Positions 4,061 through 5,416 of a stretch of 64,000 nt of DNA are shown in pieces; within the stretch, counting starts at the first letter, position 1; each line of letters starts with the position of its first letter. A model generated the notes under the pieces. It did no database searches, had not been told where the DNA came from, and saw only the letters and a program-made list of their open reading frames with translations. Made by a program: the position numbers and the translations under genes. This DNA comes from Escherichia phage Ec_O157kw. The stretch is from the sequence record PV857777.1. The stretch is one strand, 5' to 3'.

Positions 4061-4606
4061 ATGAGAAAAGCACTACTCGCTGGTCTATTGGCCATTTCAA
4101 TGATGGCACATAGCTCCGAGCATACTTTCAGTAATGTCCAACTCGATAACATGCGTTACGCGTATCAATTCGGGGAACAGTTTTCTAAGGATGGAAAATA
4201 TAAAACACACAAAAATATCCACAAGAGCGGATTAGGTCATATAATGGCTGCTATTTTATGGCAAGAAAGCTCTGGCGGAGTTAATTTAAAATCTAAACCA
4301 AAGCATCACGCTTATGGAATGTTCCAAAATTATTTGCCTACTATGCGAGCAAGAGTTAAGGAACTTGGTTATAATATGACCGATGCTGAAATAAAAAGAA
4401 TGTTGAATAAACGGTCCAATTCAGCTTCCTGGGCGTACATTGAACTTTCTTATTGGTTAAATATACATAAGGGCGATATAAGAAAAGCAATATCCTCTTA
4501 TAATTCGGGATGGAATGTTAAAGCAGGTTCTAAATATGCTTCTGAAGTCCTAGAAAAGGCTAATTACCTTAAAAATAATAAACTTTTGGAAATAGTAAAT
4601 GACTAA
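4061..4606 (+). CDS. Secreted lytic-transglycosylase-like protein
   Basis: 181 aa; N-terminal signal peptide MRKALLAGLLAISMMAHS; WQESSGG and AYGMFQ motifs resemble SLT-family catalytic region. Confidence 0.6.
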   Translation: MRKALLAGLLAISMMAHSSEHTFSNVQLDNMRYAYQFGEQFSKDGKYKTHKNIHKSGLGHIMAAILWQESSGGVNLKSKPKHHAYGMFQNYLPTMRARVKELGYNMTDAEIKRMLNKRSNSASWAYIELSYWLNIHKGDIRKAISSYNSGWNVKAGSKYASEVLEKANYLKNNKLLEIVND

Positions 4607-4940
4607 AATTTTGGTTTTATGTATAGGATTAATTTCATTTTCTGCGTTAGCAGATACATCATATACTGAAATTAGAGAGTATGTAAACCGTACTGCAGCG
4701 GATTATTGCGGGAAAAATAAAGCATGCCAAGCTGAATTTGCGCAGAAATTAATATATGCATATAAAGACGGAGAAAGAGATAAATCAAGCAGATACAAAA
4801 ACGATACATTGTTAAAACGATATGCTAAAAAGTGGAATACCTTAGAATGTTCAGTTGCGGAGGAAAAAGATAAAGCCGCTTGTCATTCAATGGTTGACCG
4901 TTTGGTAGATTCTTATAATCGAGGATTGAGTACTAGATGA
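4599..4940 (+). CDS. Secreted hypothetical protein
   Basis: 113 aa; signal peptide MTKILVLCIGLISFSALA; four Cys in mature part. Confidence 0.55.
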   Translation: MTKILVLCIGLISFSALADTSYTEIREYVNRTAADYCGKNKACQAEFAQKLIYAYKDGERDKSSRYKNDTLLKRYAKKWNTLECSVAEEKDKAACHSMVDRLVDSYNRGLSTR

Positions 4941-5416
4941 TTGTAAAATATATCAAGGGCGATATTGTCGCCCTCTTTCTTGAAGGTAATATTATTGCGC
5001 ATGGGTGTAACTGTTTTCATACAATGGGCAGTGGTGTAGCTGGTCAATTAGCAAGAGCCTATCCCAAAATTTTAGAAATAGATAAAACCACTACTGAGTA
5101 CGGTTCTCGTGATAAATTAGGCGATATGTCTATTGTTTTTAAACATAAACCTAATGGTTTTGGCATATGTTATAACTTGTATACGCAATACGAACCAGGT
5201 CCTAATCTTGATTATGGTGCTTTAGTAAACTGCATGATAGAATTAAATCTACAGGCAGAAACCCTTTTGTTTAAACCGGTAATTTACATTCCACGCATAG
5301 GTTGTGGTATTGCTGGCGGCGATTGGGATAAGGTTTCTAAATTAATCGACATGTTTACTCCTGATATTGATTTAATAGTGGTGGATTATGAAAGTACATT
5401 ACCCGCATCCGTTTGA
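4937..5416 (+). CDS. Macro-domain protein (ADP-ribose binding/hydrolase fold)
   Basis: 159 aa; GDIVALFLEGNIIAHGCNCFHTMGSGVAGQL and IGCGIAGGDWDKV match the macro-domain nucleotide-binding motifs. Confidence 0.7.
   Translation: MIVKYIKGDIVALFLEGNIIAHGCNCFHTMGSGVAGQLARAYPKILEIDKTTTEYGSRDKLGDMSIVFKHKPNGFGICYNLYTQYEPGPNLDYGALVNCMIELNLQAETLLFKPVIYIPRIGCGIAGGDWDKVSKLIDMFTPDIDLIVVDYESTLPASV

Follow-up and report, generated by a model that had tools for sequence, protein, structure and literature searches.

A divergent, widespread allele of the T4 macrodomain gene tk.4 (adfM) in Escherichia phage Ec_O157kw

Escherichia phage Ec_O157kw (sequence record PV857777.1) carries, like T4, an orphan antitoxin-like macrodomain, which very probably detoxifies phage DNA modified by DarT2. 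The gene lies at positions 4937-5416 of the 64,000-nucleotide stretch analysed here (the window) and is, judged by its sequence, the allele of T4 tk.4, recently renamed adfM, in this Tequatrovirus. As such, it is an unremarkable anti-defence gene of the T4 family, which had been annotated before and has recently been characterised. Conceptually, nothing is added to the published adfM work and to the long-standing macro/A1pp annotation of tk.4. What is new is limited to the allele: the present genome has a common divergent one, while the DarTG2 data come from the T4-type allele.

The present analysis establishes the gene, its macro fold and structural class, its orthologous and syntenic relation to T4 tk.4 and the conservation of the active site. 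The requirement of the T4 allele for DarTG2 resistance, as well as the hydrolysis of thymidine-linked ADP-ribose on DNA by SCO6735 and PhiKZ AdfM, are taken from the literature.

The tk.4 gene and its family

4937-5416, plus strand: tk.4/adfM ortholog, 159 aa, ATG start; single-domain macrodomain without signal peptide

An earlier note, made from the nucleotide sequence, had assigned macrodomain motifs to an open reading frame at exactly this position, and all four of them are found in its product (GDIV at residues 8-11, NIIAHGCNC at 18-26, MGSGVAGQL at 30-38 and IGCGIAGGD at 121-129). Here, the Pfam Macro family (PF01661) matches residues 22-136 with an E-value of 6.2e-8 and 33.1 bits, above the curated gathering cut-off of 22, and a PHROG search places the product in phrog_335 (2e-71). 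Since homologs are present in 2776 of 50,697 phage records, the reading frame represents a real gene and a chance ORF is ruled out. The hosts of phages with Tk.4-like macrodomains include Pseudomonas, Vibrio, Acinetobacter, Aeromonas and Bacillus. The minus-strand ORFs around tk.4 were taken as spurious, all of them being at most 74 aa long and nested in plus-strand genes.

The window stems from a Tequatrovirus closely related to T4. The region 3500-6200 is matched by 737 records and occurs at 98-99% DNA identity in hundreds of T4-like phages of Escherichia and Shigella. A near-identical gene is labelled "macro domain protein" in several deposited genomes, and the T4 RefSeq label of tk.4 reads "phosphatase; contains A1pp phosphatase motif". 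The similarity to T4 Tk.4 extends over the full length, with 58% identity over 155 aa (E 4e-70). Furthermore, both genes occupy the same slot between vs and tk.3, and their products, of 159 aa in the window and 155 aa in T4, belong to the same PHROG family.

Macro fold and structural class

The fold was addressed by sequence searches and by structure prediction. A phmmer search of the product against PDB sequences returned BT1257 first (~2e-10), followed by Poa1p, SCO6735, DarG and TARG1. A profile of 56 homologs found BT1257 (1.2e-19), TARG1 (7e-17), SCO6735 (1.7e-15), Poa1p (9e-15) and DarG (3e-12); T4 Tk.4 was left out of the alignment behind this profile and behind the AlphaFold2 model. 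The latter has a mean pLDDT of 93.7 and a pTM of 0.88 and displays the strand/helix alternation expected for a macro fold, with its three-layer alpha/beta/alpha arrangement. A Foldseek search of the model against the PDB listed the macrodomains of TARG1, Poa1p, BT1257, DarG and ALC1 at the top. Both Gly-rich ADP-ribose-binding loops, MGSGVAG (30-36) and IGCGIAGG (121-128), are present and align with the loops of TARG1, SCO6735 and BT1257. Thus, the two checks proposed in the earlier note, structure prediction and alignment of the Gly-rich loops with genuine macrodomains, both returned a macrodomain, and an eraser of ADP-ribosylation, as suggested there, is plausible.

According to the model, the product is a member of the ALC1-like class, which comprises TARG1, DarG, SCO6735/BT1257 and Poa1p, and not of the MacroD/YmdB class. 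A MacroD/YmdB-type OAADPr deacetylase is not indicated by the equivalog models, which stay below their cut-offs, and the nearest structural neighbours are other than the MacroD type. An equivalog assignment was tried and rejected, since the NCBIfam models for DarG, the OAADPr deacetylase and the ADP-ribose-binding protein all score far under their cut-offs.

The active site

Three stretches of codons contain the predicted active site:

5000-5050, plus strand: H22-G-C-N25-C26 and the first Gly-rich loop M30-G-S-G33-V-A-G-Q-L38, predicted ADP-ribose binding cleft
5174-5188, plus strand: N80-L-Y-T-Q84, with Q84 as the predicted catalytic position
5291-5326, plus strand: second Gly-rich loop P119-R-I-G-C-G-I-A-G-G-D-W130

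The key positions agree between a family-guided alignment and HMMER profile alignments. Over 56-57 homologs (without or with the T4 allele), H22, G23, N25, C26, G33, A35, D49 and G62 are invariant, and so are N80, Y82, Q84, P119, G122, G124 and W130. Read at the level of the alignment, this pattern of invariance is the mark of a conserved active enzyme.

Position Q84 aligns with Q85 of SCO6735, with a Gln of BT1257 and of ALC1 and with K84 of TARG1. A126 aligns with D125 of TARG1 and also with the Ala of SCO6735 and BT1257. Hence, the window protein has a Gln at the catalytic position and no TARG1-type Asp, the combination that defines the Gln class of SCO6735 and BT1257. The second Gly-rich loop (PRIGCGIAGGDW) is near-identical to those of SCO6735 (PRIGCGLAGGTW) and BT1257 (PRIGCGLAGGKW); the T4 counterpart reads PRIGAGIGKGNW. 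In addition, N25 aligns with N23 of PhiKZ AdfM.

Comparison with known macrodomain systems

For T4 tk.4, a function has recently been reported. In a transposon library of T4 grown on a DarTG2 host, tk.4 was the sole significant hit (HIDEN-SEQ, bioRxiv 10.1101/2025.11.20.689424, November 2025). A clean knockout renders T4 sensitive to DarTG2, and the gene was renamed adfM, for anti-DarT factor Macrodomain. The removal of ADP-ribose from DNA by T4 Tk.4 was inferred by the authors, the evidence being genetic (10.1101/2025.11.20.689424). This finding supplies what was missing from the AdfN paper, in which T4 without adfA and adfN was still resistant to DarTG2 (PMC11825919). The reversal of DarT-type DNA modification put forward in the earlier note agrees with these genetics of the T4 ortholog and is the published function of the Tk.4/AdfM gene family.

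Every family-invariant active-site residue is identical in the window protein and in T4 Tk.4. In contrast, 42% of all residues differ, although the flanking genes encode proteins at 93-100% identity. In its second Gly-rich loop, the window protein has GCGIAGGD and T4 Tk.4 has GAGIGKGN, the C-terminus of the window protein is four residues longer, and the overlap with tk.3 amounts to 29 nt in the window versus 4 nt in T4.

SCO6735 of Streptomyces coelicolor strips thymidine-linked ADP-ribose off DNA and rescues cells from DarT, and its Q85A variant is inactive (PMC9411070). Its Q85 corresponds in position to K80 of DarG and K84 of TARG1, and the enzyme is also somewhat active on protein substrates (PMC9411070). 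SCO6735 and BT1257 of Bacteroides (PDB 5E3B, 2FG1/2AFC) are only ~26-29% identical to the window protein and are chromosomal housekeeping genes, whereas the window gene is phage-encoded. In the SCO6735 study, an extended Lys-rich mobile loop and Val25 were considered important for DNA processing (PMC9411070). By alignment, neither an extended Lys-containing mobile loop nor a Val/Ile at the position of V25 is present in the window protein. Compared with SCO6735/BT1257, six residues fewer make up its mobile loop behind the Gln, which equals the length in TARG1, equivalents of Lys89 and Lys93 are absent, and the invariant Gly23 replaces Val25 of SCO6735.

DarG of the type II/IV toxin-antitoxin system DarTG2 (PDB 5M3I, 5M31, 7OMU) and human TARG1 differ by a catalytic Lys, in place of which the window protein has Gln84. 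Unlike DarG, the window protein ends without a DarT-binding C-terminal domain, and no darT adjoins its gene; the neighbours of tk.4 are vs and tk.3. The DarG equivalog NF048014 of NCBIfam, whose cut-off is 250 bits, gives 27.8 bits and is matched at positions 2-142 of 338 only, and of the PADLOC DarG model only positions 3-144 of 329 are matched. The window protein is an orphan enzyme, outside any toxin-antitoxin system. A chromosomal homolog of Pelagimonas also stands alone among unrelated genes with no DarT alongside, and a second homolog from the bacterial set lies on a phage-like contig; these contexts speak neither for nor against an origin from a toxin-antitoxin system.

A further phage macrodomain, PhiKZ gp104, which is also named AdfM, removes DarT2-made ADP-ribose from DNA in vitro, and mutating its N23 lowers the de-ADP-ribosylation of DNA (Cell Rep 2026, PMC13309987). 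Like the window protein, it is a phage-encoded stand-alone macrodomain; it counters DarTG2, and its N23 aligns with N25. Nevertheless, it belongs to another macrodomain lineage, with short and local BLASTP matches to the window protein (E 0.001 over 31 residues). It has a DarG-like T-K motif, where the window protein has T-Q, and is imported into the phage nucleus.

Proposed function and alternatives

Taken together, the window macrodomain probably acts as an orphan antitoxin-like ADP-ribosylglycohydrolase on DarT2-modified phage DNA. In a DarTG2 host, released DarT2 would ADP-ribosylate thymidines in single-stranded phage DNA. The window protein, predicted to be cytoplasmic, would hold the ADP-ribose between HGCNC, the MGSGVAG loop and the PRIGCGIAGGDW loop, which together form the cleft, and would hydrolyse the N-glycosidic bond between thymidine and ribose, which would restore replicable DNA. 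Catalysis would follow a Gln84-type mechanism as in SCO6735, unlike the Lys-based one of DarG and TARG1. By analogy, the same substrate and role as for the T4 allele are assumed for the 58%-identical window allele.

Several observations argue against a DNA eraser. The window protein has neither the Lys of DarG and TARG1 nor the Asp of TARG1, it has no extended Lys-rich loop, and it carries Gly23 for Val25 of SCO6735. Furthermore, the evidence for Tk.4-type proteins consists of T4 genetics, with hydrolysis inferred by the authors, and the DarTG2 behaviour has been reported for T4 and T2 (adfN study), which both have the T4-type allele.

The strongest alternative arises from the allele itself, which appears as a replaced cassette in an otherwise T4-like region:

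4980-5400, plus strand: replaced allele cassette, tk.4 body divergent from T4 according to the DNA identity profile

Up to ~4980, the DNA matches T4 at 95% identity or more; this value falls to 80% at 4980-5040 and to 40-68% at ~5040-5400, and reaches 83-95% again in tk.3. At the protein level, Vs.1 (100%), Vs (97%), Tk.3 (93%) and Tk (99%) surround the 58% of Tk.4. T2 Tk.4 is identical to that of T4, and T6 Tk.4 is 98% identical. About 318 phage records encode a protein at least 90% identical to the window type, and the divergent DNA segment is found in 339 records. Two clusters, with 184 and 122 member sequences, share 57% identity with the window protein, which is the distance of T4. The window-type allele, 58% identical to that of T4, is carried by about 40% of the Tequatroviruses sequenced (~300 of the 737 records matching the region).

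These data would fit a functional variant with shifted specificity, directed at another DarT2 variant or another ADP-ribosylated substrate (RNA, or Asp/Glu of proteins) than the T4-type allele, with an arms race keeping both alleles in Tequatrovirus populations. The divergence amid flanking genes (vs.1, vs, tk.3, tk) at 93-100%, the sharp boundaries of DNA identity, as cassette exchange predicts, the abundance of both alleles (~300-320 records of the window type; clusters of 184 and 122) and the difference in the second substrate loop (GCGIAGGD versus GAGIGKGN) all point in this direction. However, the invariant active-site residues are common to both alleles, and the window allele is nearer to the family consensus: it is 40% identical to the homolog of KP27 (Slopekvirus) and 39% to the Vibrio homolog, compared to 31% and 30% for T4, and its second Gly-rich loop is the canonical GCGIAGG, as opposed to GAGIGKG in T4. 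Moreover, mosaic replacement is routine in early regions of T4-like phages, and the adjoining tk.2/tk.1 segment is replaced as well. A shifted specificity is thus considered unlikely. Due to the shared invariant residues and the more consensus-like sequence of the window allele, the two alleles would, in the simplest reading, do the same job. If the alleles were specialised, an arms-race polymorphism would be present at an anti-defence locus, and the window type would be a second functional AdfM class. In addition, the two alleles would be a natural pair for mapping the specificity determinants of Gln-type DNA ADP-ribosylglycohydrolases.

It is less probable still that soluble ADP-ribose derivatives are processed, such as ADP-ribose-1''-phosphate, O-acetyl-ADP-ribose or ADPr signals and products derived from defence systems, and that DNA adducts are left untouched. 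This is implied by the old annotation as an A1pp phosphatase, and the best evidence, for some members of the family, is a homolog in Vibrio phage P018-4, which is located between prs-like and Nampt genes and hints that the family may handle soluble derivatives as well. No NAD-salvage genes flank tk.4 in the window.

A neutralisation of DarT2 mainly through binding and inhibition of the toxin, with adduct hydrolysis not being the mode of action, appears very improbable. Catalytically dead SCO6735, DarG and TARG1 each inhibit DarT in vitro, SCO6735 being the strongest (PMC9411070), which is in favour of such a mode. However, the 159-aa window protein does not contain the C-terminal DarT-binding domain of DarG, and the strict invariance of the residues of the catalytic cleft speaks for catalysis.

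Finally, the phage encodes two ADP-ribosyltransferases of its own in the window, as the earlier note had pointed out:

50180-50800: ModB, phrog_832 "RNA polymerase ADP-ribosylase" (8.7e-42)
50797-51399: ModA, phrog_832 (2.5e-33); the ModA/ModB labels come from near-identical phages

ModA modifies arginine, namely Arg265 of the RNAP alpha subunit; Arg-ADPr is removed by hydrolases of the DraG/ARH type, and macrodomains of the MacroD/TARG1 type cleave Asp/Glu esters and OAADPr (review, PMC8120803). Macro domains are present in 41% of myoviruses generally (PMC9503650). That the tk.4 product reverses ADP-ribosylation by Alt, ModA or ModB is hardly credible: despite both writers being encoded in the same window and some activity of the related SCO6735 on proteins (PMC9411070), the arginine linkage does not fit the Asp/Glu-ester and OAADPr chemistry of macrodomains (PMC8120803), the genes lie ~45 kb apart, Tk.4-like proteins occur in 2776 records, many of them non-enterobacterial, and ModB-like proteins in 1010, all from enterobacterial phages, and the T4 knockout phenotype is specific for DarTG2 (10.1101/2025.11.20.689424). 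Due to the linkage chemistry and the mismatched phage distributions, the pairing of tk.4 with ModA and ModB as eraser and writers, proposed in the earlier note, is rejected. Of that note, the macrodomain, the eraser and the DarT ideas hold, and the Mod pairing and the significance given to the neighbourhood do not.

Genomic neighbourhood

The order of the plus-strand genes is that of T4, i.e. vs.6, regB, vs.1, vs, tk.4, tk.3, small variable ORFs, tk, rI.1 and rI:

2412-2774, plus strand: Vs.6 ortholog, autonomous glycyl-radical cofactor (GrcA/YfiD-like), 98% to T4, RVSGYAV motif
3592-4053, plus strand: regB, Pfam REGB_T4 (1.4e-68)
4061-4606, plus strand: vs.1, SLT-domain protein, PF01464 (1.4e-5, 25.1 bits, cut-off 21.3); functional link to tk.4 putative at most
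4599-4940, plus strand: vs, "valyl-tRNA synthetase modifier", phrog_1256 (5.2e-40); functional link to tk.4 putative at most
5388-5600, plus strand: tk.3, DUF7202
5576-5803: Cys-rich ORF of 75 aa in the tk.2/tk.1 slot
5800-5976: ORF of 58 aa in the tk.2/tk.1 slot
5973-6158: ORF of 61 aa, only 52% identical to T4 Tk.2
6168-6749, plus strand: tk

The stop codon of vs overlaps the start of tk.4 (ATGA). Vs.6 is known in T4 and could be mistaken at first read for the C-terminus of NrdD. A second segment replaced relative to T4 spans 5580-6170, where the tk.2/tk.1 slot is filled by unrelated small ORFs, and the vs.5 slot (2774-2995) is also unlike T4.

Upstream of tk.4, the presence of a lytic-transglycosylase-like protein with a signal peptide and of a second secreted protein was borne out by the PF01464 match of Vs.1 and by signal-peptide features in both proteins; these calls are based on a heuristic of hydrophobicity and an AXA site and not on a trained predictor. 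The N-terminus of Vs.1 reads MRKALLAGLLAISMMAHS|SEH and that of Vs MTKILVLCIGLISFSALA|DTS, with four Cys in the mature part of Vs. By the same heuristic, the signal-peptide N-termini are kept in the distant KP27 orthologs, as are the four Cys of Vs. The motifs E69-S70, GMFQ and SYNSG can be read in Vs.1, which resembles an exported murein-cleaving enzyme encoded among the early genes; the 100%-identical T4 protein is labelled "hypothetical protein" in RefSeq. For Vs, the predicted signal peptide is odd for a modifier of a cytoplasmic enzyme, and a literature search on it found nothing relevant. The vs gene is conditionally essential in minimal medium (HIDEN-SEQ, 10.1101/2025.11.20.689424). The arrangement, regarded as an unusual neighbourhood in the earlier note, is the inherited T4 gene order.

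Regulatory and RNA elements

An Rfam scan of positions 3300-6900 gave no match. A scan for sigma-70-like promoters found 9 sites, fewer than the mean of 14.6 in shuffled sequences. A terminator-like hairpin (AGGGCGATATTGTCGCCCT) is located at 4956-4974, inside codons 7-13 of tk.4, and is followed by a T-rich tail up to 4984. As a candidate regulatory element, it reaches a folding z-score of only -1.44, and 15 of 200 shuffled sequences fold equally well. The stem is absent in KP27 and identical in T4, and a terminator is annotated at this site in two deposited genomes.

Contexts of distant homologs

In KP27, the gene order is loosely conserved, with other ORFs between vs.1, vs and tk.4. The homologs of Felixounavirus and Vibrio phages are found in quite different contexts without the T4 order. 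In Vibrio phage P018-4 (L002, 3001-3480), the Tk.4 homolog, of 39.5% identity, is flanked by the genes for a ribose-phosphate pyrophosphokinase and a nicotinamide phosphoribosyltransferase and overlaps the first. This context suggests a link of the Tk.4-like macrodomain family to NAD+ salvage or reconstitution by phages. Salmonella virus VSe102 (Felixounavirus; L003, 2495-3280) encodes a 261-aa homolog, consisting of the macrodomain and a C-terminal extension of ~105 residues, which is consistent with the phrog_335 profile, whose 422 positions exceed the length of the T4-type protein. On a metagenomic phage-like contig (L009, 541-888 and 5001-5447), a gene matching Pfam Acb5 (anti-CBASS) is found ~4 kb away from a macrodomain homolog of 43% identity, and this homolog may be part of an anti-defence gene cluster.
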